Origin: Clostridiales bacterium
GTDB lineage: Bacteria > Bacillota > Clostridia > Oscillospirales > CAG-382
Assembly: GCA_003343885.1 (NCBI GenBank)
Contig: QAKH01000079.1
Span: 60,607-124,606, forward strand
Direction of reading: 5' to 3'
Length of the DNA: 64,000 nucleotides
The notes under the pieces were generated by a model. That model was given only the letters and a program-made list of their open reading frames with translations, searched no databases and was not told where the DNA came from. This document shows, piece by piece, positions 18,046 through 40,115 of the stretch (position 1 is its first letter; each line of letters opens with the position of its first letter). Made by a program: the position numbers and the translations under genes.

Positions 18046-20612
18046 TGAAAGAATACATTGCCAAGACGGGCGGACGTTACACCTACAACGACGACTTGCT
18101 GAACCTGCAGGAACTCGCCCGGAGCATGACCTCGATCTTCGAAGGGTGCTCAAACTTCATCATCTCGGGTTGCGAGGTCGCCGACGGGCGTATCACGCCC
18201 GGCTACGTGTGGATCGGCGGTCGTGTGCGCCCCTTCGAAGGTGCCGCGGAGGTGTCGTTGCCGTACTACATCTACGAGAAGAACCACTACGAGACGATCG
18301 CCTATGCCGGGGACGTGAACAAGCACGGCCGCTGCTGCTATCTATGCTCGGGGGCGACATCGGTTCCACAGACCGAGGACGAGGTGACGGGCGCCCTGCC
18401 GGGCTATATCGAGCTGCACGAGGATTATGCACCGCGTTTCATAGACAAGTTCATCGGCCGTTATGCCGTATTGCTGGAAAGCCCTTTCGCACGACAGACA
18501 GTTCATAAAGACCTCACGTTGGCAGGCTCCGTGAGTGTGGAGAAGCAGTTCGAATGCAAGACGGGCTTCTCTGTCGTCTCTCCCGACGGAAGCTACAGCC
18601 TGCAGGGGCTGGTGCGGGATCCGGGAGCTGCGGAAGTGTCACTCTGCCATCAGGAGCAGCCCGTCAGTCGCGTGGAGATCGCCACCGACGGGTCCTTCAC
18701 ACTCTATGGGCAGGATGAGACACCTCTCGTGCGCGTGAGCGGCGAGGGCGTGCACATCCCGCACCTTACGGCCGTCAGCGGCCGCCTTGGAGCGCTCCAT
18801 ATCGAAGGCGGCGACCTGTTCAACACAGCCGACAATACGGACGAGGGTACGGTGAGCGTGAACCGTCGCGGATATCGCGGCGCCGAAGACCGCTACCGCA
18901 ATTTCGCGGTATACGATGGCCGCAACTCCGTGCCCCTGCTGCTGGCGGAAGGACGGACAGGAACAGTCGCGGTCGCGGGAGGCTTTGAGGTGCGTAGCGC
19001 CGCCGGGGGCATAACCCTGCGCAACACGCTCTACGACAAGAAGGAGGCAGCGCTGCAGAACCTCCTTCAGTGGCAGGACAAGGAGGGTGTGCGCATTGCA
19101 TGGCTGGGTTACGGAAACGGGGAATCGGTACACTTGAGCCTGCACAACGATTTGGGCGGTCTCACGCTCAGCGCTCGCAGTTGGGTAGACGTCGCCTCGG
19201 AACTGCGCATCGCAGGAAGGCCCATTGCGGAGCTATACGTCTCGCAGGCTTCCTTCACGCAGGCACTGGCCGCAAAGGTGAATGCGGTCGAGGGCAAGGG
19301 GCTCAGCACGGAAGACTTCACCACGGAGTACCGCCGCAAGTTGGACGCCATTGTCGCAGGCAGCCTCATGGAGGGCAGCGCGGGCTTCGCAACCACGGAG
19401 GACGTATCCCGTGCGTTGGGCGGCAAACTCAATTGTGCGGACAACCTTGCGGATCTCGCGGACAAGGCCGCGGCCCGCAACGTGCTGGAGGTCTATTCCT
19501 CTTCGGAATGCGACGGCCGTTTCCTGCAGACAAAAAACTTCCTCGCGGAGTTCGCATCCCTTACGGCTGCAGAAGTCGAAGGCAAGAGCCCCGAGGAGAT
19601 CATTGCCCTGAAGCAGGAGCGTCAGCAGCGGGCTCGCGAGAACCTCGACGCCGAACGCCGGGGCACAGGGGATATGAAACTTTCCAAAGCCTCGAATCTC
19701 GCGGATGTGGAGGATAAGGATAAGGCACGTCACAACATCAACGTTTATTCGATCGAGGAGGTGGATGCGCTGCTGGCTGGGAAGCTGGACAACGACGCCG
19801 CCTATCAGGGTGCAGTCTTCACCACAGAACATAAGGCCAAACTCGAGGCGATACGCACGGGAACCTTCGCCGGCAGGGACGAAAGCGGCGGCCAGCAGAA
19901 CCAGAGCGAGGGCTACGTGACGACCTCGTCCGTGGTGCGCGAACTCTCGAAGTACGCCCCGCGGCTCATGGCGGGCTACAACACGCAGGACAAGGCTACG
20001 GTGGCTGCCAATCTGGAACTCTATACCCGCAACGAGTCGGACGGCCGTTTCGCGGCACTCGGGCAGTCGCTGCAGGATTACGTCTCGTACCTCGTCCGTC
20101 AGGGCAAGGCGACGGTCGAGGCCCGTAAGGCGCTGCGCGGGGTACTTGCCGCTGCCGGCGTGGATGATCTTATCGCCTATGTACGCCGTGACCAGAACCT
20201 CGCGGATCTTACGTTCAAGGACGACAATGCCCGGCGCTTGGCGTGCCAGAATATCGGTGCTGCCTATGCTCCGGAGTACGAGAAGAAGATTACGGACACG
20301 GGGTGGCTCGAATGCGGCGGCGAGAATGCCGGAACGCTTTGGGCCCGGCAGATCGGCAACATCGTCTGCGTGCAGGGCATCATCAACACGGCCCTGCGTT
20401 CGTCGAACAACTGGGGCTCCATCGCCACGATCCCCAACGTCATCTCCCCGCCTCGCTTCGGCTGCCGGCAGACGATGGCCAATTTCAACGACGACCACGT
20501 CTACAACCGTGGCTGCTCGTTCGTCATCAAGGCCGGTTCGCGTACGATCCTCATGCACGAGAGCGGGGCTTACAACGTAACTACAGAGCTCAGTTTCTCT
20601 TATATGACCTAA
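18045..20612 (+). CDS. Second tail fibre protein (855 aa)
   Basis: A GTG at 18045 overlaps the upstream TAG (TAGTG). The upstream 160 codons of the listed ORF are Arg/Gly-rich and lie inside other genes. The motif NLAD(L/V).DK..AR.N(L/I).VYS recurs at least four times, as in fibre shaft repeats. Confidence 0.65.
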   Translation: MKEYIAKTGGRYTYNDDLLNLQELARSMTSIFEGCSNFIISGCEVADGRITPGYVWIGGRVRPFEGAAEVSLPYYIYEKNHYETIAYAGDVNKHGRCCYLCSGATSVPQTEDEVTGALPGYIELHEDYAPRFIDKFIGRYAVLLESPFARQTVHKDLTLAGSVSVEKQFECKTGFSVVSPDGSYSLQGLVRDPGAAEVSLCHQEQPVSRVEIATDGSFTLYGQDETPLVRVSGEGVHIPHLTAVSGRLGALHIEGGDLFNTADNTDEGTVSVNRRGYRGAEDRYRNFAVYDGRNSVPLLLAEGRTGTVAVAGGFEVRSAAGGITLRNTLYDKKEAALQNLLQWQDKEGVRIAWLGYGNGESVHLSLHNDLGGLTLSARSWVDVASELRIAGRPIAELYVSQASFTQALAAKVNAVEGKGLSTEDFTTEYRRKLDAIVAGSLMEGSAGFATTEDVSRALGGKLNCADNLADLADKAAARNVLEVYSSSECDGRFLQTKNFLAEFASLTAAEVEGKSPEEIIALKQERQQRARENLDAERRGTGDMKLSKASNLADVEDKDKARHNINVYSIEEVDALLAGKLDNDAAYQGAVFTTEHKAKLEAIRTGTFAGRDESGGQQNQSEGYVTTSSVVRELSKYAPRLMAGYNTQDKATVAANLELYTRNESDGRFAALGQSLQDYVSYLVRQGKATVEARKALRGVLAAAGVDDLIAYVRRDQNLADLTFKDDNARRLACQNIGAAYAPEYEKKITDTGWLECGGENAGTLWARQIGNIVCVQGIINTALRSSNNWGSIATIPNVISPPRFGCRQTMANFNDDHVYNRGCSFVIKAGSRTILMHESGAYNVTTELSFSYMT

Positions 20613-22824: not shown

Positions 22825-23889
22825 ATGACAAGAGATAAACGACCGTGCATGCTTCTGATGAACGACATGCACGTCTCCAAAAACGATATTGCCGAATTCG
22901 ACCGTAACTGGGACGAAGCGCTGGCACTCTGTCGCGAGCGCAGCATCCGCGATATAGCCCTTGGCGGCGACCTTTTCCAAAGCCGCAGCGCGCAGACGCT
23001 CGACGTCCTGCTCGCGGTACACGACGCCCTGCTGCGTGCAGCCGGGGCCGGCATCCGTCTTACGATTGCCGAAGGCAATCACGACAAGGTGAATCAGGAA
23101 GACCTGCGCGGCTACTGCCACGTCTTCGACTGCCACCCTTCGGTCACGGTCGTAGACGACATCCTGACGCTCGATGACCCTGCGTGGGCGTTCTCACTAC
23201 ACATGATGGGCTATTTCCCCGAAGGCGGAAGCTTTACGTCGCGTCTGGCGGCCCTTGCGACGAGCGGTCTTGTGGAGGGCAAACTCAACTACCTCTATAT
23301 CCACGAGGGCGTGAACGGAGCCCTCGCCACGGCAGCGCCGTGCGAGCTGCCGCCCCGCATTTTCGAACCCTTCGACCGTGTCTTCGCGGGGCATTACCAC
23401 AATCGCGCCGTCGTGCCCGGCACCCGTATCGAATACGTCGGATCGAGCCGCCAGTTCAACTTCGGCGAGGATGAAGCCAAAGGCTATACCATCCTCTGCA
23501 CGGACGGTTCGTCGGAGTTCGTGCAGAACGAGGCCAACATCCGCTATAAGGTCCTCGATACGTCGGCCGATAAGGTCGGCATACACCTTTTCGACCGCAT
23601 CGACGAGCTGCGCGCCGACGTCCGCTGCCGCCTCAAGGTTCGTGTGCGGGCTTCGCAGACCGACACCGTGGACCGCCAGCGGCTGCTCGATGCCGGAGCC
23701 AACAAGGTCGAAGTCCTCAGCGACACCGCCCCGATACCGGCCGCGCCCGAGGAAGATGTGCTCGACAAATTCGACGGCGCACGCCTGCGCCGCGCTTACG
23801 AGGACTTCTGCGCAGGGAGAGGCATCGACGACGTGGAGCTCGGAATCGCTTACCTTAACAAAATAGACCGTACATCATGTGGTATCTGA
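22825..23889 (+). CDS. sbcD: SbcD/Mre11-type metallophosphoesterase nuclease (T4 gp47-like)
   Basis: The calcineurin-like motifs appear in order: LLMNDMHV, GGDLF, EGNHD, YIHEG and GHYHN. It is translationally overlapped with the SbcC-like gene. Confidence 0.8.
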   Translation: MTRDKRPCMLLMNDMHVSKNDIAEFDRNWDEALALCRERSIRDIALGGDLFQSRSAQTLDVLLAVHDALLRAAGAGIRLTIAEGNHDKVNQEDLRGYCHVFDCHPSVTVVDDILTLDDPAWAFSLHMMGYFPEGGSFTSRLAALATSGLVEGKLNYLYIHEGVNGALATAAPCELPPRIFEPFDRVFAGHYHNRAVVPGTRIEYVGSSRQFNFGEDEAKGYTILCTDGSSEFVQNEANIRYKVLDTSADKVGIHLFDRIDELRADVRCRLKVRVRASQTDTVDRQRLLDAGANKVEVLSDTAPIPAAPEEDVLDKFDGARLRRAYEDFCAGRGIDDVELGIAYLNKIDRTSCGI

Positions 23890-26195
23890 AACATATCTCC
23901 GCAACCGATATATGCTCCTTCCGCACGCTGGACTATGCGCCGGCCGAAGGTACGACGACGCTCATATTCGGGCACAATGCCGACAACGAGTCGCAGCGCA
24001 GCAACGGAGCAGGCAAGTCGACGCTCATCGAAGCCATCACGCTCGGACTGACGGGTAGCCCCTTGCGCAAGGTCCGCGCCGAGGAGGTCGTAAACGATGC
24101 GGCCGAAGAGTGCCGTGTGACCCTTACGCTCGGCAACCGGGCCACGGGCGAGGAGATGCGCATCGAGCGTACCGTACCCCGCCGTGGTACGGCTTCGGTG
24201 CGATGCCTGCTCACGCAGGACGGGAAAACCGGAGAGGTAGCGCAGCCCAGCGTCGACGCCGCCAATCGCTACATCCTCGAACGGCTCGGCATCACACGCG
24301 AGGAGCTCTTCTTCGCATTCATTCTCTCGCGTCACCGTTATGCGGACTTCCTCTCGGCATCGGACCGGGAGAAAAAGGAGATCATCAACCGCTTCAGCGG
24401 CGGCGACAGCGTGGACCGTGCCATCGCCTCGGTCGGAGAAGACCTTGTGCCGCTGCAGGAGGAACTGCGGGCTGCGGAGCTGGAGATAGCCTCCATCGAC
24501 GGGCGTATCGCAATGCTATCCGAGCAGATCGCTCACGAAGAGGAGTCCCGCAGCGAAAAGGAACTTTCTCGGAAACAGAAGATCGCCTCGATACATGAAA
24601 CGATAGCCGCCAAGCGGAGTGCTGTGCGCGAGTGCGGCGAGGAGATCGCCCGTCAGGAGCGGTTCTTGTGCCGCATCGCCGAAGCCGAGGGTCGAGTGCA
24701 GAAGGTGGAGGACTCCGCAGAGCCGCTTGCGGCGTGTATGACCCGCGTACGGGAATTGCTCGCACCCCTGACAGATGCTCCGCTGACGGATTGGGGGCAT
24801 GTGGCGGCGGACAAACACAAGGAGATAGAGACCTCCCGGGCGGAGATGGACAAGTGGACGCAGATCATAGCAGGAATAGGCCATAAGCTGGCCACGGCAG
24901 AGGTAGAACTTATCCTGCGGCGCAAAGAGTTCGACTGCTTCAAGGAGGAGGCTGCGGAGAAAGGCGTCGCACTGTGCGACCAAATGCGCAGCCTCGAAGA
25001 ACGCCTTACACGGATGAATGCCGAAGTCGTGGAACTGCAGCGGCGCAAGCGTACCGTGACGGCGGCTGTAGAGACGCTCCACGCGCGTCTGGCAGGCGTG
25101 GTGGAGTGCCCTGCCTGCGCACATCGTTTTCTTGTAGCAGACGGTGCATTCGACGTGGCGGCGGCGCAAGGGCAGCTCGAAGGTCGCGAAGCGGAGCTCA
25201 CACAGGTGAAGCAGGAACTTCAGGACAACGAACTCGAAGCCGAGAAGGTCGCGCAGATGATAACCGCCGTGCAGACCCGCACCCGCGAGCTGGAGGCCCT
25301 GCGCCGCGGCTGGGAGGAGCGTATGGCCAAGGCCACGCGTGCCGTAGACGCAGCGGAATACGAGATGGAGGGCGCGAAGTTCAATATGCAGCGCATCCGC
25401 GACCATGTCGCCGCACGTACCCGCGAGGTAGAAGATATGCGTCGTGCACTCTTCGACGAAGCATGCGACCGCCTCGTCGACCTTCGCAAGGCCGCGGAAC
25501 GGTCGATCGATGAATGCCGCGAGCGTATGGCGGCAGCCGAAAGCTCCATAGAGACCTTGCGGCAGACGGCCGCCGAGCTCGAACATGCCACGGCATCGGA
25601 ACTTGCGGCATCGCTCCGCAAATCGCTGAAAGAGTACCGGCGCCGAAACTCGGAACTGATGGCGCGGCACTCGCAGGCCGTGGAACGGCGTACGGCGCTG
25701 GAAACGCAGCAGCAACGTTTCGTGCTCTTTCGGACCTATCTGGCCAACACGAAGATAGAGGCTCTCGCAGGTATGATAAACCGCGTACTCGAAGACCTCG
25801 GCTCCGACCTGCGCGTGAATCTCGCAGGGTACACGACCCTCAAGAGCGGTGTCGTGCGCGAGAAGATCTCCGTCACGGTGATACGCGACGGAATGGATGC
25901 CGGCAGCATCCTGAAACTTTCCGAGGGGGAGCGGGCACGCGTGAACACCGCCTCGATCCTCGCCATGCAACGGCTGGTGAACGGCAATTGCCCCTACGGC
26001 GGAGGACTCGACCTGCTCTGCATGGATGAAATCCTTGACGCCGTGGACGCGGATGGACTTGCAAGCGTCTTCGCGGCGCTCAACAAGCAGTCCGTGACGG
26101 CGCTGGTCGTATCCCACGGACTCGTGCAGGAGAACTATCCTCACCGCATAACCGTCACGAAGGAGAATGGAGCTTCGCGGATCGAACGGCAGTAG
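23877..26195 (+). CDS. sbcC: SbcC/Rad50-type SMC-like ATPase (T4 gp46-like)
   Basis: Walker A NGAGKST, a long heptad-rich coiled coil with a central CPAC zinc-hook, the signature LSEGERARV and Walker B LLCMDEILD. Confidence 0.85.
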   Translation: MWYLKHISATDICSFRTLDYAPAEGTTTLIFGHNADNESQRSNGAGKSTLIEAITLGLTGSPLRKVRAEEVVNDAAEECRVTLTLGNRATGEEMRIERTVPRRGTASVRCLLTQDGKTGEVAQPSVDAANRYILERLGITREELFFAFILSRHRYADFLSASDREKKEIINRFSGGDSVDRAIASVGEDLVPLQEELRAAELEIASIDGRIAMLSEQIAHEEESRSEKELSRKQKIASIHETIAAKRSAVRECGEEIARQERFLCRIAEAEGRVQKVEDSAEPLAACMTRVRELLAPLTDAPLTDWGHVAADKHKEIETSRAEMDKWTQIIAGIGHKLATAEVELILRRKEFDCFKEEAAEKGVALCDQMRSLEERLTRMNAEVVELQRRKRTVTAAVETLHARLAGVVECPACAHRFLVADGAFDVAAAQGQLEGREAELTQVKQELQDNELEAEKVAQMITAVQTRTRELEALRRGWEERMAKATRAVDAAEYEMEGAKFNMQRIRDHVAARTREVEDMRRALFDEACDRLVDLRKAAERSIDECRERMAAAESSIETLRQTAAELEHATASELAASLRKSLKEYRRRNSELMARHSQAVERRTALETQQQRFVLFRTYLANTKIEALAGMINRVLEDLGSDLRVNLAGYTTLKSGVVREKISVTVIRDGMDAGSILKLSEGERARVNTASILAMQRLVNGNCPYGGGLDLLCMDEILDAVDADGLASVFAALNKQSVTALVVSHGLVQENYPHRITVTKENGASRIERQ

Positions 26196-26686: not shown

Positions 26687-27301
26687 GTGAAAGCACAACA
26701 GTCCCTGATTTCCCACATAGATACCGAACAGTCCGTACGTCAGCGCACGGAACTCTTCGAGCGCCTCATATTCCCCAACCGCAATCTCGTATATAAGATC
26801 TGCATGCGCTTCACATCGCGCTGGCAGGATGTCGAGGAGAACTACAACGAGTGTCTGGCGAATCTCTATCGCTACGTACACACCTACGACCCGGGGAAGA
26901 ACCTTGCCAACTGGATATTCATTTGCTGCAAACGCCTGATATACGATCTGGACCGACGCAGGGCGGCATTCAAGACCTCGGACGACCTCGATCCCGAACA
27001 CATCATCAGCCACCACGCCGAAGATACCGACCGTATGAGCGGCAACTGCATGGGACTCGATAACTACCGGGAGCTCTATAGCGACGACATCCTGCGGGCT
27101 CTCGACCGACTGAATCCCATATACCGGGAGGCGCTGCTCCTGCAGCAGGCCGGATACAAGCTCGAAGAGATCATGGAAATAACACACCGCAACGGCACGC
27201 TCCGTACACCGAATATCGAGACGGTCAAGAGCCGTCTGTTCCTCGCCAAACTGAAGATGCGCCAAATGATCGACCGCGATGGAAACAGCCGCAATGAGTA
27301 A
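26687..27301 (+). CDS. Phage-encoded sigma-70-family (ECF-like, two-domain) sigma factor
   Basis: GTG start, with an in-frame TAA 9 nt upstream. It has a region-2-like block (LYRYVHTYDPGKNLANWIFICCKRLIYDLDRRR) and a region-4 HTH-like block (YREALLLQQAGYKLEEIMEI...TVKSRLFLAKLKMRQ). Confidence 0.7.
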   Translation: MKAQQSLISHIDTEQSVRQRTELFERLIFPNRNLVYKICMRFTSRWQDVEENYNECLANLYRYVHTYDPGKNLANWIFICCKRLIYDLDRRRAAFKTSDDLDPEHIISHHAEDTDRMSGNCMGLDNYRELYSDDILRALDRLNPIYREALLLQQAGYKLEEIMEITHRNGTLRTPNIETVKSRLFLAKLKMRQMIDRDGNSRNE

Positions 27302-27896
27302 GTGGGCCCTGCAACTCGTGCAGCTGCTCGCAAGTCGTTGCATAGACCCCGCATTCCGATTCCCCGCAGGTGCCGCGGCCCAGCATACGGTGGCGGCCTG
27401 CATGGAGGCGCTGGAGCGAGAGTTCGCGGGCGTGAGCCGTCAACGGATCGTAGACTTCTGCGTATGTCAGGTGTATGCCATGACCTTTTACAAGAAAGGG
27501 ACGCTCCGGCAGCGGTGGCGCGTCGCCCACTCCTTCGGGGCCAAGGCGCTGGAACGATTCCGCCGCAACGAACAGAGGCACCGCTATTGGGAGGATCGCT
27601 GGCTCGCGCAGCACGGAATCGTGCGTGCGCAACTCGTGGAGATGCTCCGCGACCGCACGCAGCACCCGCTCGCGAAGTTCATATATCCCGAATACGAGGA
27701 CCGCACCAAGCGCCGGCAGGCGGGCTCGGAGGCGGGGCTTTACATATGCACGCGGTCGACGCTCCTGTGGACGCCCTTCTCGCCCGTATGCCGTGCATGC
27801 GCCATGGCCGTTCAGTGCCGCACGCTGGAGCAGCGACGCTATCCGGAACTGCTGCGAATACGCGAAGAGCAATACGGGAAAGGAGGCGGCAGATGA
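27294..27896 (+). CDS. Hypothetical protein coupled to the sigma factor (C-terminal Cys cluster)
   Basis: The ATG at 27294 overlaps the end of the sigma gene. Its TGA overlaps the helicase ATG. C-x13-C-x2-C-x5-C lies near the C-terminus. Confidence 0.5.
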   Translation: MSKWALQLVQLLASRCIDPAFRFPAGAAAQHTVAACMEALEREFAGVSRQRIVDFCVCQVYAMTFYKKGTLRQRWRVAHSFGAKALERFRRNEQRHRYWEDRWLAQHGIVRAQLVEMLRDRTQHPLAKFIYPEYEDRTKRRQAGSEAGLYICTRSTLLWTPFSPVCRACAMAVQCRTLEQRRYPELLRIREEQYGKGGGR

Positions 27897-29248
27897 CGGC
27901 ATCGCGCAACGCACTCTCGGCCGAGTATCTCTACGAACTCTACTCGACGGCCATACGCCACGAGGCCGTATGCGCCGTACTCGTAGCGCACATGCGGCGC
28001 GAGTACCTTCCCGACCGTACATTCCAACATATTCACGAGTTTTTCGTGAACCATTACCGGACCTACAAATCGCCGCCCTCATATGCCATGCTTGCGCAGA
28101 CATTCGCCTCGGATTACGATGCACTGGAACTGGTGAACACTTTCCGTGAGTACGACGGAGAAAACAACCCCGAAGCGGTTGTCGACATGCTCGAAACGTA
28201 CATCAAGGGTGTGCGTCTGCAGGCCGTATACTCCGAGGTGGGGAAACTCTACAACCAGAGCCGGCAGGCCGAGGCCGAAGCGAAACTCAAGGAATACGCC
28301 GAGTGGCTCGCGGGATTCACACTCAAGGATTCGGCATTCGTGGACGTGGTGAAGACCTTCGCCATGCGTTTTCATCGCAACCGCCGCCGTGAGGAGGAGC
28401 TGCAGGCATCGGGCGTGAAGCCCGTCACACGCTTTTATATTCCCGATCTGGACGAACTGAATGCCGGACGCAGCCTCCGCGGACAGCTATCGTGCATCCT
28501 CGCGTCGACGGGCGTGGGAAAGAGCCACATGGCAAAACATATAGGCTTGCGGGCCGACATCGACGACGGACTGCACGTGCTGCATTTCCAGCTCGAAGGT
28601 TCCGAAGAAGAGGCACTCAATGCATACAGCGGGGGACTCATAGCCCGCAACGCCTTCTATTTCGAGCGGGGGCATATCGCCGAGGTGGAGATGCGCCGCT
28701 TCGAAAAGGAGATCGAGCGCTATGCCGGGAGTATAACCGTACGGTCGTTCCCACGCTTCGCGGCACGCATATCTACTATCGATATCCGAAACGGCATCGC
28801 CGAATACCGCAAAATCAACGCCCGAACGCCCGACATCGTCATCATCGACTCGATGGACCTCTTGAACGACGCCTCCCGCCGCCAGTGGGGAGCCGAGCAC
28901 GAACGCTCGAAGCGCATCGCCGTGGCGAACGACCTGAAGGACCTTGCTGCCGACGAGAATGTATGGATGGTCGTCACGTATCAGGCGACGATCGAAAACC
29001 GCGACTGGCTAAACGACGAGAACAACGTCCTCACGGAGTACAACTGCTCGGAGGCGAAGGGGCTCGCACGGCCATGCACCCACCTTATATCGCTAAATCA
29101 GTCCGCGGCCGAGCGCGAGGCCAACGTCATGCGTCTGCATGTGGCAAAGAGCCGGTTCTTTCGCAAGGGAGATACTTTTCGCATAGCCACGGACTATGAC
29201 AACGAAACCTTTTACGATTCGGCAAGGACGCTGGGACTCAGACGGTAA
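27893..29248 (+). CDS. dnaB: DnaB-like replicative helicase (RecA-fold)
   Basis: The ATG at 27893 forms an ATGA overlap; the upstream part of the listed ORF is Arg/Pro/Gly junk. Walker A ILASTGVGKSH and Walker B DIVIIDSMDLL are present, with replisome neighbours on both sides. Confidence 0.75.
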   Translation: MTASRNALSAEYLYELYSTAIRHEAVCAVLVAHMRREYLPDRTFQHIHEFFVNHYRTYKSPPSYAMLAQTFASDYDALELVNTFREYDGENNPEAVVDMLETYIKGVRLQAVYSEVGKLYNQSRQAEAEAKLKEYAEWLAGFTLKDSAFVDVVKTFAMRFHRNRRREEELQASGVKPVTRFYIPDLDELNAGRSLRGQLSCILASTGVGKSHMAKHIGLRADIDDGLHVLHFQLEGSEEEALNAYSGGLIARNAFYFERGHIAEVEMRRFEKEIERYAGSITVRSFPRFAARISTIDIRNGIAEYRKINARTPDIVIIDSMDLLNDASRRQWGAEHERSKRIAVANDLKDLAADENVWMVVTYQATIENRDWLNDENNVLTEYNCSEAKGLARPCTHLISLNQSAAEREANVMRLHVAKSRFFRKGDTFRIATDYDNETFYDSARTLGLRR

Positions 29249-30275
29249 ATTCGGATGATGTTTGTTCTTGCCTTTCTTTCTCCATCGTTTGGTATTCCTT
29301 CAATAACACTTTTACCCGATGGTATGCAGAATCGTCTTTCCCTTCCCCTTTTTCGAACAACACGATATCCTCTCGATATACATCGTCGAGGATATCGTAT
29401 TTCAGAAGTAATCGCACCATATCGAAACTCGATTTTTCCCATACCGCATTGAATACACCAAATGCCAACTCATAGCGGGATAATTGAGCACGATATAAAT
29501 GTGCATAGTATGCTTTGTCCGTATCGTTGAGAGAAGATTGGTCGATAGTATTAAGGACATAATACATATTCCGGAAATATTGTCCGAGAAAATGTCCATT
29601 CTCTTCATAAAGTTGCCCGTACACTTCGGCAACAGCTTGGACTCTGTCTTTCGCTGATAGTTTATCGCTATATGCAATGGTCAGGGCTATGGCGGACCAT
29701 TCTTGCTTGTTAGTGTCTACGCATTTGATATCTCGGTACATATTTATCTTAATTTCCGAAACAGTTTTTTTTGTTTCAGCGAACAATTTAGATTGGCAGT
29801 CTGTCAGTTTTGGAAAACGGGATGTGCCGTTGTTATTGGTTTTCAACCCGCGTATAATCAAATGTAATGCAAGATATTTATCCGCCTGTCGGGTATAGGC
29901 TCTGAATGCGTCATATCCGGATATTGTATTTCCGTTCTCCTGATATATGACCGCCTCGACTTTCTGCTGATGCAGGCCGAGCAGATTAAAAATCTGTTCC
30001 CGCTCGGCATTCTTACGCCCTTCATATACCGTCCGAATAGCGATAATAAAAGCCAGAGATCCGAACACTGCACCCCAAAGCGTACCGAACGCGATCCACG
30101 CATTATAATCGGAAGACAAACCATCATGGTAAATACAGAAATAACAGATAATTGGTGGTATGGAGAATATGCCACCTATAATCCACCAAAAACAAGGGGA
30201 AGCTGGTTGCATTGTGGCCGTTACCGCCTTTATCATTATAGCTTTTATTGCCTTGATTTTTTCCATTTTTTTCAT
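29238..30275 (-). CDS. Membrane protein resembling putative phage abortive-infection (AbiC-like) proteins
   Basis: The Met at 30275 (MKKMEKIK...) shares one nt with the upstream TAA (TAATG). Two N-terminal TM helices are present (FWWIIGGIFSIPPIICYFCIY; AWIAFGTLWGAVFGSLAFIIAI). The block GHFLGQYFRNMYYVLNTID...YYAHLYRAQLSRYELAFGVFNAV recalls that family from memory. The gene is AT-rich and on the opposite strand to the replication genes. Confidence 0.55.
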   Translation of the reverse strand: MKKMEKIKAIKAIMIKAVTATMQPASPCFWWIIGGIFSIPPIICYFCIYHDGLSSDYNAWIAFGTLWGAVFGSLAFIIAIRTVYEGRKNAEREQIFNLLGLHQQKVEAVIYQENGNTISGYDAFRAYTRQADKYLALHLIIRGLKTNNNGTSRFPKLTDCQSKLFAETKKTVSEIKINMYRDIKCVDTNKQEWSAIALTIAYSDKLSAKDRVQAVAEVYGQLYEENGHFLGQYFRNMYYVLNTIDQSSLNDTDKAYYAHLYRAQLSRYELAFGVFNAVWEKSSFDMVRLLLKYDILDDVYREDIVLFEKGEGKDDSAYHRVKVLLKEYQTMEKERQEQTSSEFTV

Positions 30276-31441
30276 TATGATTTGGTGCTCAGCATGGGTT
30301 TCAGTTTGCCGTCGATAAAATGATTCGGTTTCCAACCGGTCAGTAGCTTGTCTACAAAAAAAGTATCTGCGGCTGATACTACTGTACCAACAACAGGTAT
30401 TAAACTGGATAGTTCCGTAACAGTAAAGCGTGCTGCTTTGACACCTTTTTTGTCCGCCAGCGTCGGAGCCAAAACTTCGTTTATATATTGATTGACCAGA
30501 TCGGCATCCCGGTCGATTGTTCCTAGCCACTTCCTGAATTTATCGCCTTCTTCGAGTAATTTAAGTAGCTGTTCACCAGTTATCTGTCCTGCGACGAATG
30601 CTGTCCCGATACTGGGACAATCTGCCAAGACATGCTTGTTAAATTCTATGATCTCTCCTTCGCTTTTGCGTGTTCGCTGTATGACATCGGCGATTTGCAG
30701 ATTCATCAGCGATGAGTGCAGATCGCTGGTAGCAAACTCACTCATAAACTGTCCTGCGATGTAATTGTCGCCCCGGGCCTCGGCCAATGCCAATATGATT
30801 GAAGAGTAACTGAGACCGGCTTGTTCCCGTTTGGTGAATATGTTATTGATCGTATCGAAATCAATATTGGACCGAACGCTATATGTTGCGGAAAATGGAC
30901 CAACGGGATGTTGGTCCTTTACGATATCAATGCGTAAAGGTTCTACCTGGACATATTCTGGAACATAGGTGTGTAGTATTTCTGCCACAGCCTGGGTTAG
31001 GTAGACAGTATTTAGGAAGTCTGCATCAATCATTTGCCCAATAACAGGCTCATAAGCATGCGCCTGAGCAATTTCAGAGAAACTATCAGCAAATTTCATA
31101 TTGTACATACTGTTGTGAACTACCTGTTGATGGGCTGTATAAAGGATGTTGTGCACACTGACATTATTACCACGGAACAACTCTACTCCATAGTGGATGT
31201 CGGCGCCAAATGGTTGTGTTGCAACACCCAGAATATTCTGTCGGATATGAAGTTTCAAGCGTCTGCTTTCAATCAGTTCTCGCAATGTATCTTCACCGAA
31301 TGTCTTCAATAGTGTTACCATTTCGGCCGTATGCGCCAATACGTTAACCTCTCCGTAAAAAAGCATCGTGTCAATAAGGAACGACATATCGAGTCGTCCA
31401 TCGTTCAATTCTCTGGATTTAATGCAAATCTTCTCGAACAT
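30275..31441 (-). CDS. Unknown 388-aa protein, upstream partner of the Abi-like gene
   Basis: Clean ATG ORF, AT-rich and coupled to the downstream gene. No P-loop, nuclease or other motif was recognised. It has a hydrophobic C-terminal segment (LSSLIPVVGTVVSAADTFFV). Confidence 0.65.
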   Translation of the reverse strand: MFEKICIKSRELNDGRLDMSFLIDTMLFYGEVNVLAHTAEMVTLLKTFGEDTLRELIESRRLKLHIRQNILGVATQPFGADIHYGVELFRGNNVSVHNILYTAHQQVVHNSMYNMKFADSFSEIAQAHAYEPVIGQMIDADFLNTVYLTQAVAEILHTYVPEYVQVEPLRIDIVKDQHPVGPFSATYSVRSNIDFDTINNIFTKREQAGLSYSSIILALAEARGDNYIAGQFMSEFATSDLHSSLMNLQIADVIQRTRKSEGEIIEFNKHVLADCPSIGTAFVAGQITGEQLLKLLEEGDKFRKWLGTIDRDADLVNQYINEVLAPTLADKKGVKAARFTVTELSSLIPVVGTVVSAADTFFVDKLLTGWKPNHFIDGKLKPMLSTKS

Positions 31442-31527
31442 GTTTTGTTACATTTTTCACATATCGAATTTACTTATTTTTTCGTATTTGCCCAACTTTT
31501 CTATTCGATGTTGGACTATTCCTTTAT

Positions 31528-32559
31528 GTGCGAACAGACGATAACACATACCTTATCGAGGAACTAACTCGTGAACTTTCGGCCCGCCGCGACGGATCGC
31601 GTCGCAACCTCATAGCCCGGTGTCCTTACTGCGGCAAGGAGGGTAAGTACGGCGTTTATATCGGTCCCGAGACGGCCCGCAAGAAACCTTTCATGGCGCA
31701 CTGCTTCTCGTGCGGGGCTTCGACGCACTCGTTGGAGCGAACGCTCGAAGCCCTCGGGCGCATGGACCTGCTGCCGACGCGCACGACCGACCCCGAAGCC
31801 AAGCTGGACTGCAGCCTGCTCTTTCCGCTCGATGCGGGCGAGGAGATCGACGATGGACTGGGTATCGTGGAGCTGCCGGAGTTCTGGCGCCGCACCTTCC
31901 TGCATCCTTACCTCAAGGGACGCGGCTTCACGGCCGACGACTACGAGTTCTTTCCGGTGGGAACCACACGGGGCCTGAACTTCCGCTACGACGATTACGT
32001 GATTTTTCCGGTTATCGACTCCGGCGACACGGTAGGATACGTCGCCCGCCATCTTTGGCCCAAGGCCGAGATCGATGCCTACAACCGCCGGGCGAAATTC
32101 ACGGGCGACTACGCCATACGGCGCTTTCGCAACTCCACGCAAAACGACTTCGTGAAGCTGCTTTACAACTATGACGCGGTACATGAGGACAGCACCGAGA
32201 CGGTCGTTCTCTGTGAGGGCATATTCGACGTGGTGGCTCTCACACGCAAGCTCGACCTATACGAGTCGGAGCGCGTGGCCGCCGTAGCCACCTTCGGAAA
32301 GAAAATATCGCAGGCCCAGATTTACAAGCTTCAGACGAAAGGCGTGCGCAACGTCGTGGTGGGATACGACGGGGATGCTGTGGACGCCACGAAGAAGACG
32401 GCCGAGGAACTAAGCCGCTACTTCGAGGTGCTCGTGGCCGACATTCCCGATCCCAAAAAGGACTGGGAAGACCTCTCTCCGCAGGAGATCTACGACATCT
32501 TCGCCTACCGCCTCAAAACGCCCGTCGAGTACAAAATCAATAAAATCCAGCAACTATGA
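31528..32559 (+). CDS. dnaG: DnaG-type primase (zinc finger plus Toprim)
   Basis: GTG start. Zinc ribbon CPYCGKEGK...HCFSCG is followed by Toprim-like VVLCEGIFDVVAL and VVGYDGDAVDA. Its TGA overlaps the dnaE ATG. Confidence 0.75.
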   Translation: MRTDDNTYLIEELTRELSARRDGSRRNLIARCPYCGKEGKYGVYIGPETARKKPFMAHCFSCGASTHSLERTLEALGRMDLLPTRTTDPEAKLDCSLLFPLDAGEEIDDGLGIVELPEFWRRTFLHPYLKGRGFTADDYEFFPVGTTRGLNFRYDDYVIFPVIDSGDTVGYVARHLWPKAEIDAYNRRAKFTGDYAIRRFRNSTQNDFVKLLYNYDAVHEDSTETVVLCEGIFDVVALTRKLDLYESERVAAVATFGKKISQAQIYKLQTKGVRNVVVGYDGDAVDATKKTAEELSRYFEVLVADIPDPKKDWEDLSPQEIYDIFAYRLKTPVEYKINKIQQL

Positions 32560-34262
32560 ACGATCTAACCCGATGGCTCGACAGCCAAAATATAGACTAC
32601 TGTGTCATGGACAACGAGGTGGTCGATATACCGGAGTTCGGCCGCCTGTTCCGCGCCGACCTTACGGGCGTGAAGAGTATCTTCCGCCAGCGGGGAGATG
32701 AGCAGGTCTTCAACCTGATGGAAGACCCGCAGACTCTTATCGACGAGGGTATTTTTCACGTCGCCTTTCCATTCGGCGACAACTGGTACTACTATGACCT
32801 GCGCGGGGAGTTTTCCCTGAATATCCTGCGGCATATCGGTCGGCCCAAGCCTGACGGGTGCGATGTCGAGTTCGTCAATCTGGGCGTTCACACTCCCTAC
32901 GAACTGCTCAACGCTTCGGGCGATATCGGGGCATGGGTCCGAAAGGCCAAATGGATGGGCCATACGGCCCTCGGTCTCTGCGATCGCAATACGATGGCCG
33001 GAACACTGGCGTTCCAGAAAGAGTGCGCCAAGGCTGGAATTAAGCGCGTCTTCGGCTATTCGCTCACGCTGGATGGCGACGGAACGGAAGTCCCGTTGAA
33101 GGTCTACTGCCAGAGCCAGCAGGGATTGCAAAACCTGCTGCGCATCCAGAAAGCGGTGATGGTGGACCGCGAGGACGGGAGGATCGACATGGAGCGCCTC
33201 ATGGCCCACGGACGCGGCAATGTCCTCGTGCTTGGAACGCTCGCAGCGGAGTGGATGACGGAGAACCGCCCGGCCATCGGGCGACTGCGCGAAGCCTTCG
33301 AGGCCCTCTACTACCAGATCGATCCCACGGAGTTCAAGGCCGACCGTATCGACGTGCAGCGGCTGGAGAATATGCGGCGATACTTCCACGAGTTCTGCAA
33401 GAAAGGCGTGTTCGAGGTGGAACCGGTGCTGATTCCCGATTGCTACTACATCGACCAAGCCGACGCCCGCAGCAAAATCATACTCAACAAGATCGCCACG
33501 GGCGCCGCGCACGAGCAGAGCAACGAACAGTATTTCCGATCCGCCGGAGAGCTTCGGGACAAGCTGCGGCCGTTGTTCGACCCCGAGCGGTGGGATGTGG
33601 ACGAACTGTTCCGGCGGATGTGCCGCAATACGGTCGTGATCGCCCAAGGGGCCGAAGCGGCATACCGGACGGACGCCGTCTTCATGCCGCGCTACGACAT
33701 GACGCCGGACGAGAAAGCGAAGTACGGCGACACGCATACGATGTTCCTTTCGCTGCTCGAAGAGGGTTTTTCCAGATTGGTACCTGCGGAAAAAGAAGCC
33801 GAATATCGGGAGCGTCTCGATAAGGAGATTTATATCCTCGAATCGACGGACAACATAGACTACTTGCTGGTTCAGTACGACACCGTGAACTGGGCGCGCC
33901 GCAACGGCATCCTCGTAGGCTGCGGTCGAGGCTCGGCGGGCGGCTGTCTGGCCTTGTACCTGCTGGGCATCACGCTGATCGACCCTGTGAAGTACGGTCT
34001 GTTGTTCGAGCGTTTCCTACTGCCCGAACGCGCCGGATTGTATGCGGCCTGCACCACGCGTATCGTAGGACGCATCGACTCGAAGGACAGCTACCGCATC
34101 GGATTGGAGAACAGCCGCGAGATCCTGCTGGACCGCGATGCCCGGCTCGTGGTACGCCGCGGCGACGAACAGATCGAGGTCTATGCCGACGAACTTCGGG
34201 AAGGAGACGACATCTTGTTCGACAACCGCGATTTACTGTTTGAAATAGACCGACAATCATGA
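32556..34262 (+). CDS. dnaE: DNA polymerase III alpha (DnaE), N-terminal fragment: PHP domain and first half of palm
   Basis: The PHP motif VNLGVHTPYELLNASG is present. GCGRGSAGGCLALYLLGITLIDPVKYGLLFERFLLPER matches the conserved GRGS...LLFERFLNPER block. A 70-aa Cys-initiated extension follows before the stop. Confidence 0.85.
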   Translation: MNDLTRWLDSQNIDYCVMDNEVVDIPEFGRLFRADLTGVKSIFRQRGDEQVFNLMEDPQTLIDEGIFHVAFPFGDNWYYYDLRGEFSLNILRHIGRPKPDGCDVEFVNLGVHTPYELLNASGDIGAWVRKAKWMGHTALGLCDRNTMAGTLAFQKECAKAGIKRVFGYSLTLDGDGTEVPLKVYCQSQQGLQNLLRIQKAVMVDREDGRIDMERLMAHGRGNVLVLGTLAAEWMTENRPAIGRLREAFEALYYQIDPTEFKADRIDVQRLENMRRYFHEFCKKGVFEVEPVLIPDCYYIDQADARSKIILNKIATGAAHEQSNEQYFRSAGELRDKLRPLFDPERWDVDELFRRMCRNTVVIAQGAEAAYRTDAVFMPRYDMTPDEKAKYGDTHTMFLSLLEEGFSRLVPAEKEAEYRERLDKEIYILESTDNIDYLLVQYDTVNWARRNGILVGCGRGSAGGCLALYLLGITLIDPVKYGLLFERFLLPERAGLYAACTTRIVGRIDSKDSYRIGLENSREILLDRDARLVVRRGDEQIEVYADELREGDDILFDNRDLLFEIDRQS

Positions 34263-36430
34263 GAATAACGAAGATCACACACGAAAAAGCTCCGGTCGAA
34301 GCTCTCGATACGGAGGCAGACGAGGGCTACCTGCAAGGTCCCGGCCGCGTGCTGGCCGACGTCGATGTCGATTATCAGGCCGACCGTCGTCAGGAGGTCA
34401 AGGAGTATCTGGAGCGCCGCTACAATATCGAAGGGCGGCAGCGGGTCTTCTCGGCCGGGACTTTCTCGACCATGAAGCTCAAAGCCTGCCTGAAGGACGT
34501 CTGCCGCGTGCATAAGATTCCCGTGTCGCTGGCTAACTATATCTCGGCGATCATCGGCTCTTCCGATGCGACATGGACCGACCTGTTCCGCCTTGCGGCC
34601 CGCACGCCCAAAGTCCGCAAGTTCGTGAACGATTACCCGCAGGCCGTCGAAGATATGCGCCCGCTGCTGGGCCAGCCTCGTTCGGCCTCGGTGCACGCCT
34701 CGGCCATCCTGATCACGCCGGAGCACCGGGACGGAGAGCCGTCCGAATGTTTCGACTTCACGCCCGTAAAACGGGTGGACGGCATGCTCGTCAGCGAGCT
34801 GGACGGCTACTCGTTGGATGAAGTGGGTCTTCTGAAGAACGACTGCCTCGGCATTCTGGAACTTACGAAGATACAGTCCGTACTGAATGAAATCAACCGT
34901 ATCTACGATTCGGGCATCTCCTTCGAAAAGATCGTACTCAGCGGACTGGATGACGAAAAGACCTACGGACTGCTCTGCGAAGGCTACACGGCCAACATCT
35001 TCCAGCTATCCTCGGCAGGCATGACCCGTTATCTGCAGGATATGCAGCCGGCGTCGATCGGTGATCTGATCGCGGCCAATGCGCTCTACCGTCCGGCAAC
35101 GCTCGACTCCGGCGCGGCGGAGAACTACCTGCGCTGCCGTCTGGGCGAGGTCGCTCCGGTCTACCTGTGGGGAACGTACGATGCCCTGAAAGATACCTGC
35201 GGGCAGTTGATCTATCAGGAGCAGGTCAGCCGCCTCGTCCGCGACGTGGGCGGCTTTTCATTGGCCGAAGGTGTGCGGCTCGTCAAGCTGATCTCCAAGA
35301 AAAAGATCGACGTTATTCATGCTATGCGGGAGAAGTTCATGACGGGAGCAGCAGAGAAGGGATGCCCGAAGGACGACGCCCTGCGCATCTGGGATCTGAT
35401 CGAAAGCGCCGGAAGCTATCTCTTCAACCTATCCCACGCCTCGGCCTACGCGATTACGGCTTACGTCGGTGCATGGCTCAAGGCTAACTATCCCACGGCC
35501 TTCTATACCGTGGCCCTGCAATACGCCGATGACAAGGAGATCGTTACGCTGATGTCCGAAATGGAGCGGTGCTCTGCAGCCCGTATCGTGCCGCCCGACA
35601 TCAACCTCTCGCAGGTGCAGTTTTATACCGACTACCATAGCGACAGTATCTACTGGTCGTTCGGCCGTATCAAAATGGTCGGCGTCCGAACGGCGGAACA
35701 TATCGTTCGCGAGCGGGAGCGATTCGGAGAGTTTACGGGTGTCGGGGATTTCGTCCGCCGTATCTTCCGCCACCGGCTCAAGAAATACCGTACTTGGGAG
35801 GACGACCTTCCGCCAGCCGAGGCGGAACGTGTTCCCGTAAACGCCCGCCATGTCCGTAACCTGATTTTGGCCGGCTGCTTCGATACGGTGGAACGTATCG
35901 CATCTGTTACCGAGCGTTACGGCATCCTTCAGCGTGCCGCCGCGGAGCTGGGTTTCGCGCTCGACGAGCGGGACTATCCGCCGGAAGAGATCGCCAAGCA
36001 CCACTTCTGGGCCCGGCAGCAGATCGCCGTGTCGGGCATCGGATCCGTGGACTACCGCCGCATCTTCGACGAGTCGGCAGTTCGTGCCCGCATCAAGGGC
36101 CGCGCGTCGTACATGAGCCTTCACGACGCCCTCGTGATGGAGAACGAAGGGAAAAAAGTCGCCGTCTGTGCAACCGTAACCGATGTGGAGGAGCTATCCT
36201 ATAAGGACAGGATGACGGGCGACCGGGTCGCTTTTTGCAAGATTATATTGCAACAGAACACCGACACGATCGAGGCGGTCTGCTGGAACGACTTTTTCAG
36301 CGCCCGCCGTGCCGAGATCATGAGGCTCAAGGACCGTATTGTGGTACTCACGGGTATCATCCGTTACAGCGACTTCTCGGGCGCCAACACCCTGCATACG
36401 ACCAAAACATCCATATTATCGCAAGAGTGA
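34259..36430 (+). CDS. dnaE: DNA polymerase III alpha (DnaE), C-terminal fragment: catalytic Asp motif, fingers, HhH, OB fold
   Basis: ATGA overlap with the N-fragment. After about 33 extra residues comes ADVDVDY (equivalent to PDFDVDF). GLLKNDCLGILELT, YLFNLSHASAYAITAYVGAWLKANYP and a C-terminal OB-like segment follow. Confidence 0.85.
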   Translation: MRITKITHEKAPVEALDTEADEGYLQGPGRVLADVDVDYQADRRQEVKEYLERRYNIEGRQRVFSAGTFSTMKLKACLKDVCRVHKIPVSLANYISAIIGSSDATWTDLFRLAARTPKVRKFVNDYPQAVEDMRPLLGQPRSASVHASAILITPEHRDGEPSECFDFTPVKRVDGMLVSELDGYSLDEVGLLKNDCLGILELTKIQSVLNEINRIYDSGISFEKIVLSGLDDEKTYGLLCEGYTANIFQLSSAGMTRYLQDMQPASIGDLIAANALYRPATLDSGAAENYLRCRLGEVAPVYLWGTYDALKDTCGQLIYQEQVSRLVRDVGGFSLAEGVRLVKLISKKKIDVIHAMREKFMTGAAEKGCPKDDALRIWDLIESAGSYLFNLSHASAYAITAYVGAWLKANYPTAFYTVALQYADDKEIVTLMSEMERCSAARIVPPDINLSQVQFYTDYHSDSIYWSFGRIKMVGVRTAEHIVRERERFGEFTGVGDFVRRIFRHRLKKYRTWEDDLPPAEAERVPVNARHVRNLILAGCFDTVERIASVTERYGILQRAAAELGFALDERDYPPEEIAKHHFWARQQIAVSGIGSVDYRRIFDESAVRARIKGRASYMSLHDALVMENEGKKVAVCATVTDVEELSYKDRMTGDRVAFCKIILQQNTDTIEAVCWNDFFSARRAEIMRLKDRIVVLTGIIRYSDFSGANTLHTTKTSILSQE

Positions 36431-38027: not shown

Positions 38028-38570
38028 ATGAAACAGGACGAAATACAGGTTGTCGAAGCTGAAGCGGTGCATCTCGCGGCACTGGACGGGCCGCCGCAGC
38101 TTACCGAGGCGCAGGAGCGTTTCTGTCAATTCTACGTTTGCGGCGGCATGCAGTACGCCGGGCAGGCGGACAGGTGTTACCGCGAGGTGTTCGACATAAA
38201 GCATGGCGATACGGAGGCTGCGGCACGCCGCCTCGTGCATAACCCCGCCGTCATGGCACGCATCCGCGAACTCGGCACGGAGATGATCTCCGAAACGGAA
38301 AGCATCGCCGTCAAGATGCAGATAAGTCGCACGCTCCGCAACATACTGGAAGAGACGGCGACGGGCATCTACCGCGACCGCTTCGGCAACCCCCTCTCCC
38401 CAGCGCCCCTACGGGCCGTGGCCGTGAATGCCGCCAAGGCCCTTATGGAGATGTATCCCGTCAAGAACGGCGGCGAGGCGAAGTTCAAGATCGAAGGTAG
38501 CGACAACAACATCGTCTTCAATGTCATCGTGCCACGCATGGAAAACACCCCCACCCATGACGAGGGATAA
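38028..38570 (+). CDS. Terminase small subunit
   Basis: ATG at 38028 (the track start at 38007 is TTG). LTEAQERFCQFYVCGG...AGQADRCYREVF...AAARRLVHNPAVMARIRELG resembles the Terminase_2-type HTH N-terminus. Confidence 0.6.
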   Translation: MKQDEIQVVEAEAVHLAALDGPPQLTEAQERFCQFYVCGGMQYAGQADRCYREVFDIKHGDTEAAARRLVHNPAVMARIRELGTEMISETESIAVKMQISRTLRNILEETATGIYRDRFGNPLSPAPLRAVAVNAAKALMEMYPVKNGGEAKFKIEGSDNNIVFNVIVPRMENTPTHDEG

Positions 38571-38739
38571 GGGCGGAAGGAGACGCAGATGCTCCCGCCG
38601 CGACGTCGAGAGGATCGTGTACCTGGTACTGATCGTCCTTGCGGCGCTATACGGACTCGTAAACAGCGAGGCCGCCGTGAGCCTGCTGGGGGCCATTAAA
38701 GACGCCTTTTCACTATTGATAAATACCGCGACACCATGA
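38557..38739 (+). CDS. Small single-pass membrane protein (60 aa; holin-like by size only)
   Basis: Internal Met of the listed ORF. It has a basic N-terminus and then the TM helix IVYLVLIVLAALYGLV. It overlaps both neighbouring genes. Confidence 0.4.
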   Translation: MTRDKGGRRRRCSRRDVERIVYLVLIVLAALYGLVNSEAAVSLLGAIKDAFSLLINTATP

Positions 38740-39038
38740 GCGCTACAACCGAAAAATTCAGAAAATTCGTGGAGGACAACTTCAAAATCATCGTTACCGT
38801 GCTGGCTTTTTTCGTAACGATGTACGTGCAGCACACCAACAACACGGCCCGCATCGCCGAACTGCAGGGCAAGTGTGTCGATCTGGAGACCAAAATCGCC
38901 GATCAGTACGACCGTATCAACGCCATCAAGCTCGACAAGGCCGTATTCGAGGCTACTATGACACAGTTTACCTCCATACAGTACGACCTGCGCGAGATGC
39001 GGGCCGACATCAAGGAACTGCTTAAAAACAAACAGTAA
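38736..39038 (+). CDS. Membrane-anchored coiled-coil protein (100 aa)
   Basis: TM helix IIVTVLAFFVTMYV followed by a heptad-like helix. ATGA-coupled. Confidence 0.5.
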   Translation: MSATTEKFRKFVEDNFKIIVTVLAFFVTMYVQHTNNTARIAELQGKCVDLETKIADQYDRINAIKLDKAVFEATMTQFTSIQYDLREMRADIKELLKNKQ

Positions 39039-39039
39039 A

Positions 39040-39838: not shown

Positions 39839-39935
39839 TTTTCCAAAATTCTTTACTACCTTTGTTTCACTAAATAATTATACAAGAACCGGAAAGACGA
39901 AAGAATTGACATAAGATAGCTTTTAGCTGTTTATT

Positions 39936-40063: not shown

Positions 40064-40115
40064 ACAATGTCGGGTTCGTGCTTTCTTATTTTTTTAATTC
40101 GTTGTTCTATAACGT

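Follow-up and report, generated by a model that had tools for sequence, protein, structure and literature searches.

The 64,000-nucleotide (nt) stretch of the Clostridiales bacterium contig QAKH01000079.1 (assembly GCA_003343885.1, positions 60,607 to 124,606 of the forward strand), referred to here as the window, contains a putative prophage in which two genes, named here gene A and gene B, are inserted between the genes for a DnaB-type replicative helicase and a Toprim primase. This DnaB/primase junction is a cargo hotspot in the phage lineage of the window, and A and B are stacked, independently exchangeable modules within it rather than one system. The explanation that we favour, and regard as probable though far from assured, is a hot-swappable slot holding two independent single-gene modules that protect the lysogen from other phages. 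A previous sequence-only reading of the window had described two antisense, AT-rich genes between helicase and primase whose stop and start meet in a TAATG junction, and had interpreted them as prophage cargo (moron genes). The open reading frames (ORFs) and the GC content confirm the description, and the cargo interpretation agrees with the AT-rich composition and with the state of the same junction in relatives, where it is either empty or filled with other defence-type cargo. The proposal in the same reading that the two genes form an obligate pair found no support, as described below.

The primase was used as an anchor for mapping 47 related loci by tblastn, 20 of them viral and 27 metagenomic; where individual loci have to be told apart they are given with an L number. 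In relatives with a DnaB 49-83% identical to that of the window the slot is empty, and helicase and primase are only 15-35 nt apart. Among phages carrying different cargo, DnaB is 88-99% identical. Besides A together with B, the cargo consists of large antisense TIR-NLR proteins, a Fic protein with an HTH_3 protein, a GmrSD_N/DUF262 protein with a smaller companion, or a single protein without a match (Table 1), while in L132-L135 (DnaB approximately 73% identical) A occupies the slot alone, with its end 10 nt from the DnaB stop. All cargo types have a GC content of 0.34-0.49 as opposed to 0.55-0.61 in the flanks. The 252-aa (amino acid) companion of the GmrSD_N/DUF262 protein in L136 (3948-4706, minus strand), which is encoded downstream of it, contains the motif RHRNRCAH, an R-x4-H motif of HEPN-like type. 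Together with the 432-aa protein of L142, it is a candidate new defence gene by position.

Hotspots of this kind are already known, and the junction adds a further one to them: P2-like prophages and P4-like satellites are described as carrying hotspots of antiviral systems (Rousset et al., 2022, PMC9122126). The slot shares with these a fixed place between core phage genes, mutually exclusive and compositionally foreign cargo, a mixture of recognised defence systems and unknown genes, and cargo resembling the family of B, called putAbiC, which occurs in P2-EC45. It differs in belonging to another phage clade and source, in lying inside the replication module, in holding mostly antisense genes, in having a small cargo set of only six types, and in that the defence role of these types is predicted. 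This resemblance is the strongest argument for the cargo, including A where it stands alone, serving conflict between phages.

Phage hotspots also carry morons that have no role in defence. The most serious of the alternatives, which we consider unlikely, is that only B is related to defence and that A is accessory or selfish cargo of another kind, with a role in counter-defence or host takeover, in lysogenic conversion or membrane physiology, or as an addiction- or toxin-like gene that merely travels in variable regions. In favour of this, A is unlike any known defence protein or domain, as 121 of 122 diverse members of its family have no PADLOC match, and many of its nearest neighbours in other phyla are housekeeping genes. 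A qualitative scan of the 150 nearest neighbours from 75 loci with Pfam and PADLOC gave a heterogeneous mixture; besides many housekeeping enzymes, the matches listed include integrases, resolvases, Type I S, Type IIG, MADS, GajA, RloB, PIN_8 and HEC-07. In a Bacteroides-type subclade, approximately 50% identical to A of the window, a 112-aa integron-cassette protein, VCH_CASS14 (PF18315), is always encoded 10 nt upstream of A, for example in L001 (5652-5990 followed by A at 6001-7158) and L166 (5653-5991 followed by A at 6001-7161), and may be a lineage-specific partner of A; the only publication found on it is a structural-genomics paper from 2013. The pair lies close to an integrase-like gene and a resolvase in Bacteroides-type contigs, and in L166 it stands beside Prok_Ub/Prok-E2/ThiF, NYN nuclease, HTH_17, transposase and Schlafen-like genes. 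In Pedobacter soli, A adjoins the MobC, relaxase, TraJ and TraM genes of a conjugative element, and in one further genome a terminase remnant. The conjugative element, the surroundings of the pair in L166, the occurrence of A in viral contigs and the defence-type genes among its nearest neighbours speak for the explanation that we favour. Against a non-defence role, all other identifiable cargo of the slot is of the defence type, and across phyla A has kept its full length and an intact reading frame under purifying selection. A phage-specific takeover or anti-defence function fits poorly with the fact that A is also carried by bacterial chromosomes, by a conjugative element and by a plasmid, all of them far from phages.

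A separate observation concerns the A locus of Vibrio sp. MEBiC08052 (L088), which was inspected for integron-like repeats. Small ORFs of one orientation precede the A homologue there, and among them direct repeats of 76-255 nt with 86-96% identity (796-1050, 4306-4826, 5476-5730) are found. They could have arisen by duplication of cassettes or form a cassette array.

Whether A and B are independent was examined with a hidden Markov model (HMM) of B, which was run against every ORF of 111 loci. B lies next to A only in the phage lineage of the window, and a putAbiC gene was found within 6 kb of A in none of the 79 loci from other species. In an all-against-all blastp of the 1,586 neighbouring ORFs of approximately 83 A loci, no family was common to more than three loci, and the gene downstream of A is variable or absent. 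The only locus outside this lineage with homologues of both is L110 (IMGVR_UViG_2767802467_000007), in which a distant putAbiC gene (567-1607, E 7e-21) and the A homologue (6001-7197) are 4.4 kb apart. Homologues of B also occur on their own, next to recombinases, within a polysaccharide cluster or behind small ORFs, with no A present, which is compatible with action as a single gene. Within the phage lineage, the helicase, A and B have diverged to discordant extents. Between the window and L093, the synonymous divergence (dS) of DnaB is 0.088, whereas A and B have only 72% and 64% amino acid identity, respectively, with saturated synonymous sites. Between the window and L006, dS amounts to 0.77 for DnaB, 1.9 for A and 0.155 for B, and between L006 and L112 to 0.47, 0.30 and 1.45, respectively. 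This discordance, together with at least four combinations of A and B alleles within the lineage, indicates that recombination separates A from B.

These data bear directly on the proposal of the sequence-only reading that A and B are one obligate two-component abortive infection (Abi) system, in which A would be the sensor or regulator and B the membrane effector. In every phage that carries both, the two genes point in the same direction with a spacing of -1 to 40 nt, the pair is kept through the allele combinations mentioned, and L110 has a distant putAbiC gene at some distance from A. However, A fills the same slot without B, putAbiC is absent from the vicinity of A in the other species, B homologues exist without A, and the alleles reassort independently, so that the adjacency expected of a pair is not seen outside the phage lineage of the window. 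In addition, the lactococcal AbiC and AbiP proteins, to which B is compared below, are single-gene systems according to a 2026 review (PMC13064643). In L007 (7181-8198), the putAbiC gene is split into two overlapping ORFs with a called product of 292 aa, in a phage contig that is otherwise intact. The break is a frameshift or an assembly error; a genuine frameshift would mean that phages retaining A can do without B. An obligate pair is thus improbable. As its family normally occurs alone and as it fills the same slot alone, A most likely suffices by itself for defence or superinfection exclusion.

Both genes of the cassette are located on the minus strand, antisense to the flanking DnaB and primase genes, and the convergent 3' ends of B and DnaB overlap by 11 nt. 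The GC content is 0.40-0.46 over positions 29250-31500 in comparison with 0.56-0.65 in the flanks, with a drop from about 0.58-0.60 that coincides exactly with the cassette, and amounts to 0.437 for A, 0.412 for B, 0.578 for DnaB and 0.587 for the primase. The A stop codon (TAA, 30277-30275) and the ATG at 30275-73 have one base in common, which results in the TAATG junction. This ATG may not be the real start of B, because its close homologues have their first codon where B has Met4 (30266), 7-10 nt past the A stop, and gene callers choose Met14, which gives a product of 332 aa. The one-base overlap is not conserved, and in variants B starts 10-40 nt past the A stop. As the gap between A and B is at most 40 nt in every start variant, the operon-like coupling stands. 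The start of A, on the other hand, is fixed at 31441 by the N-terminus MFEKICIK, which is conserved throughout the family with nearly invariant M1 and F2.

A promoter of the cassette itself is presumed to lie in the 86-nt region between A and the primase. When the junctions of phages with different cargo are aligned, only the last 30 nt or so ahead of the primase start are similar again, and the rest of the region is cargo-specific yet kept among the phages that carry A, for example TAAATTCGATATG. A scan of the cassette for promoters of the sigma-70 consensus type and for terminators gave matches at chance level only. No Rfam family was found in the cassette region and no tRNA in the window. 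With dN/dS values of 0.09-0.23 for both A and B (phage variants, where measurable; about 0.1 for A), the two are real genes under purifying selection. The view that the cassette is decaying foreign DNA, an insertion remnant with no current function, can appeal to its atypical GC content and to the broken B copy of L007, and is very improbable in the face of these values, of two ORFs intact in the window and most relatives, of a window-type cassette that recurs without change in independent metagenomes, several in number (L013, L154, L158, L159), and of the 225 member sequences in the cluster of the window's own A protein.

The protein encoded by B matches the Pfam family PF16872 (putAbiC) with 54.4 bits (cutoff 22, E 1.8e-14) over profile positions 5-79 of 80, and this family is present in all 18 homologues of B that were found. 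The profile search thus bears out the Abi homology suspected in the sequence-only reading, and the two blocks on which that suspicion was based, YFRNMYYV and YRAQLSRYEL, both lie inside the match. In the alignment of homologues, the invariant residues are concentrated in F-x-L-x3-H, G-H-x2-G-x-Y-F-R-N-M-Y-Y and Y-R-A-Q-L-S-R-x-E, of which the latter two belong to the putAbiC core. B also matches phrog_8999 (E 1e-12) and, weakly, the PADLOC model for AbiP (PDLC02351, E 1.4e-6, 26.5 bits, profile positions 83-163 of 223 only). The two N-terminal transmembrane (TM) helices that had been noticed from the sequence recur in the hydropathy profile, with Kyte-Doolittle hydrophobic segments that begin at residues ~28 and ~59, and in the AlphaFold2 (AF2) model, with helices at 27-50 and 57-108; W60, G64, A75 and F76 are conserved across homologues. 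The AF2 model has a predicted local distance difference test score (pLDDT) of 80.4 and an all-helical soluble domain. A fold search with B gave no PDB match (best E 0.59). In a profile search DarA was the sole PDB match (E 0.41) and was rejected. No paper was found that names PF16872 or putAbiC.

By its Pfam profile and architecture, B is assigned to the AbiC/P group as a new member of a known family with the architecture of AbiC. AbiC has two TM helices and AbiP one, and their extra-membrane domains superimpose, for which reason they were grouped as "AbiC/P", while these domains are without structural match (PMC13064643). AbiC reduces the production of the major capsid protein, and AbiP, which is able to bind nucleic acids, blocks both the replication of phage DNA and the switch from early to late transcription (PMC13064643), so that the two mechanisms differ from each other. 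B resembles these proteins as a single polypeptide of approximately 340 aa with an N-terminal membrane anchor, which has two TM helices as in AbiC. Further points of likeness are a PF16872 core above the gathering score, the weak PADLOC match to AbiP, a helical extra-membrane domain without structural match, and carriage on mobile elements. It differs in that it is a prophage gene from human-gut metagenomes as opposed to a lactococcal plasmid gene, and in that its PADLOC match to AbiP has no more than 26.5 bits. Related genes have been annotated elsewhere. In the record of P2-EC45 (AJ512679.1, 936-1256), a P2-like fragment, a putAbiC-like gene is annotated as "putative lysogenic conversion protein", and on the Alistipes indistinctus plasmid NZ_AP023050.1 (65854-66684) another is annotated as "putative phage abortive infection protein".

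Gene A, which had been noted as lacking a recognisable motif, proved to have none in the databases either, as no significant match was found in Pfam, PADLOC, PHROGs or NCBIfam. Comparison with PDB sequences gave nothing usable (E of at least 0.008 with the single sequence and at least 0.2 with the profile), and among GenBank phages there was neither a protein match for A nor a DNA match for the replication module. Nevertheless, the family is very large. A profile search against 1.84 billion representatives found at least 2,331 clusters (50% identity) at E<=1e-3 and 784 at E<=1e-30, nearly all of them full length with approximately 390-400 aa, as opposed to only 36 clusters in a word-indexed search. 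They occur in Bacteroidota, Acidobacteriota, many Proteobacteria, Planctomycetota, Armatimonadota, Chloroflexota, Verrucomicrobiota, Nitrospirota and others, and homologues are also present in 13 IMG/VR viral contigs and one plasmid. All 81 relatives that were scored have no Pfam domain and no name beyond "hypothetical protein". The AF2 model is confident (pLDDT 84.6, predicted template modelling score 0.82), and a Foldseek search found nothing in the PDB (best E 0.28) or the BFVD (best E 0.45), with TM-scores of at most 0.2 at these E values. The best Foldseek matches, an rRNA methylase, OsmC/Ohr and the TIR domain of RPS4, were rejected with TM-scores of 0.1-0.37 and a probability of at most 0.23. 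A distant paralogy of A and B was likewise rejected, with an hhalign probability of 0.3%.

The nearly invariant residues of A (F2, Y29, N192, F267, F302, W305, Y319, K335, R338, D359, G369, W370, P372 and F375, of which W370 and P372 are invariant) are mainly aromatic or structural, and no conserved set of catalytic-looking residues is evident in the family. The most conserved stretch is C-terminal and consists of a basic K-x2-R, a hydrophobic segment rich in Gly, Ala and Ser, and the sequence D-x-F-L-L-D-K-L-x-K-G-W-K-P-N-Q-F-V. This last part, in the form D-x-F-x3-K-L-x2-G-W-K-P-N-H-F, is the best-conserved motif of all in the family, and its W-K-P-N-H-F tail is amphipathic. In 141 diverse members the hydrophobic segment has a length of 20-39 aa, a mean Kyte-Doolittle value of 1.34, 20% Gly and a median of one charged residue; the pattern [GAS]xxx[GAS]xxx[GAS] is present in 116 of them. 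The most hydrophobic 19-mer of the A proteins is located at about residue 344, and residues 333-359 are the sole low-confidence part of the AF2 model (pLDDT <50). With regard to mode of action only, A was compared with single-gene membrane-acting abortive infection or exclusion proteins. It resembles them as one protein with no conserved partner, positioned in a defence slot, with a Gly-rich hydrophobic C-terminal segment and no conserved catalytic-looking set. It differs from them in having no sequence or fold similarity to them, and its membrane role is hypothetical.

In the explanation that we favour, the slot would take AT-rich, antisense genes with their own promoters, which would be expressed independently of the lytic replication module and guard the lysogen against other phages. 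A and B would both be expressed in the lysogen from the AT-rich region upstream of A and would act against superinfecting phages. B would be anchored in the membrane by its two N-terminal helices with the all-helical domain in the cytoplasm, and, if it behaves like AbiC and AbiP, would stay inert until a phage product appears, whereupon it might interfere with the replication of the phage or with the expression of its late genes. For A, one could speculate that the N-terminal alpha/beta part and the helical body sense infection and that the C-terminal segment inserts into the membrane or perturbs it. We regard this division of A into a sensor body and a membrane-active Gly-rich C-terminal segment as doubtful, given a hydrophobicity that is only borderline and the lack of any structural support. 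Somewhat less doubtful, and still tentative, is the broader proposal that the proteins of the A family, widespread and with a fold absent from the PDB and BFVD, each constitute an anti-phage defence of a new kind, acting through the Gly-rich C-terminal segment and the W-K-P-N-H-F tail, for example by phage-triggered insertion into or permeabilisation of the membrane.

Several observations weigh against these views, in addition to the housekeeping neighbours of A and the qualitative nature of the scan that revealed them. The defence function of both genes is proposed from family name and position, no PADLOC model matches B more strongly than AbiP does with its 26.5 bits, and the models of A and B match no solved structure and so give no structural support for a mechanism. 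A and B are tightly juxtaposed in every phage with both and could conceivably cooperate. As to the membrane role of A, its best 19-mer is borderline for a TM helix (median Kyte-Doolittle value of 1.54, with 57 of 141 members reaching 1.6), and in the subfamily of the window the segment comprises just 20 aa, with Glu and Pro among them.

Up to now, the search for defence genes by way of hotspots has concentrated on P2/P4-type elements of E. coli (Rousset et al., 2022, PMC9122126). The DnaB/primase slot extends this approach to a prophage clade of human-gut metagenomes and provides positional evidence on a very large unnamed family with a confidently predicted and unmatched fold. The tight coupling of two genes is tempting to read as one system, and it is corrected here to stacked exchangeable modules. 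If the A family is protective, a widely distributed single-gene system would be added to the defence catalogue, thousands of "hypothetical proteins" in soil, water and gut bacteria could be better annotated, and the slot would be a discovery site for more unknown defence genes, namely those that encode the 432-aa protein (L142) and the 252-aa companion of GmrSD_N (L136).

Table 1. Features of the cassette and its slot in the window (window coordinates) and cargo of the same slot in the window and related loci
Feature	Position or locus	Strand	Description	Basis
DnaB-type replicative helicase	27893..29248	+	451 aa; left slot anchor	PF03796 DnaB_C
Gene B	29238..30275	-	345 aa; AbiC/AbiP-group (PF16872 putAbiC) membrane protein	ORF and Pfam
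putAbiC core of B	29367..29591	-	residues 229-303	Pfam match coordinates and invariant alignment columns
Predicted N-terminal TM helices of B (two)	30036..30197	-	residues ~27-80	Kyte-Doolittle and AF2
Alternative starts of gene B	30266 (Met4) or 30236 (Met14)	-		homologue starts; gene callers
TAATG junction	30273..30277	-	A stop overlapping possible B start	read from sequence
Gene A	30275..31441	-	388 aa; large unnamed family; candidate stand-alone defence/exclusion gene	ORF
Hydrophobic Gly/Ala/Ser-rich segment of A	30368..30427	-	residues 339-358, between nearly invariant R338 and D359	
A-primase intergenic region	31442..31527		86 nt, AT-rich, divergent; promoter presumed	
Toprim primase	31528..32559	+	343 aa; right slot anchor	PF13155 Toprim_2
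Cargo A and B	window, L013, L154, L158, L159, L093-95, L140, L006-9, L112			tblastn mapping
Cargo antisense TIR-NLR	L113, L119, L138, L139, L141, L143, L161		771-779 aa	PADLOC PDLC03015, E 3e-89; Pfam TIR_2
Cargo Fic + HTH_3 protein	L114		PDC-S72 is a PADLOC candidate, not a validated system	PADLOC PDC-S72, E 2e-144
Cargo GmrSD_N/DUF262 protein + 252-aa protein	L136		DnaB 99% identical to that of the window	E 1e-21
Cargo 432-aa protein	L142, 4556-5854	-	no Pfam or PADLOC match	

The surrounding element is taken as an integrated prophage from human-gut samples, belonging to a clade with approximately 58-60% GC, as judged from its gene content; the metagenome contigs that carry its relatives measure 198-584 kb. 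A Bacteroides host, as named in the sequence-only reading, is made less likely by the GC content of roughly 59%, which points to another gut taxon of higher GC. Tail genes were recognised by PHROG matches to a baseplate hub, a tail protein and a tail fibre in ORFs at 2519-3877, 7567-13749 and 17565-20612, and are followed at 21-38 kb by a replication and recombination module with an SMC-like ATPase, a sigma-70-like factor, DnaB, primase, a split DnaE, a guanylate kinase and an RNase T-like exonuclease. Genes of cellular type begin at 41878 with a class I/II aminotransferase, a radical-SAM protein and an ABC transporter. The aminotransferase, whose cluster-mates are named glycine C-acetyltransferase, occurs on more than 1,000 contigs of up to 1.8 Mb. 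The GC content falls to 0.47 at approximately 39.5-40 kb, and the right end of the prophage probably lies within 39500-41900. No Pfam match was obtained for two ORFs (38409-39221 and 40913-41623), and neither an integrase nor att sites were identified.

Two further features of the replication module were observed. On the plus strand, the 772-aa SMC_N/AAA_23 ATPase (23877-26195) is accompanied by the phage's own sigma-70-like factor with regions 2 and 4 (26687-27301), and in relatives a RuvC-like gene is added between the two. DnaE, the alpha subunit of DNA polymerase III, is split on the same strand into a 568-aa PHP/N-terminal half (32556-34262) and a 723-aa half with the polymerase, finger and HHH parts (34259-36430), which overlap by 4 nt. 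In the related phage L132, a NUMOD4/HNH_3 homing-endonuclease gene (1609-2151) lies between the two halves, and in L093 (1-966) the C-terminal half has 1,004 aa and a faint HNH match. Taken together, the split ORFs, this insertion and the HNH match hint that homing endonucleases or inteins come and go at the position where DnaE is divided.

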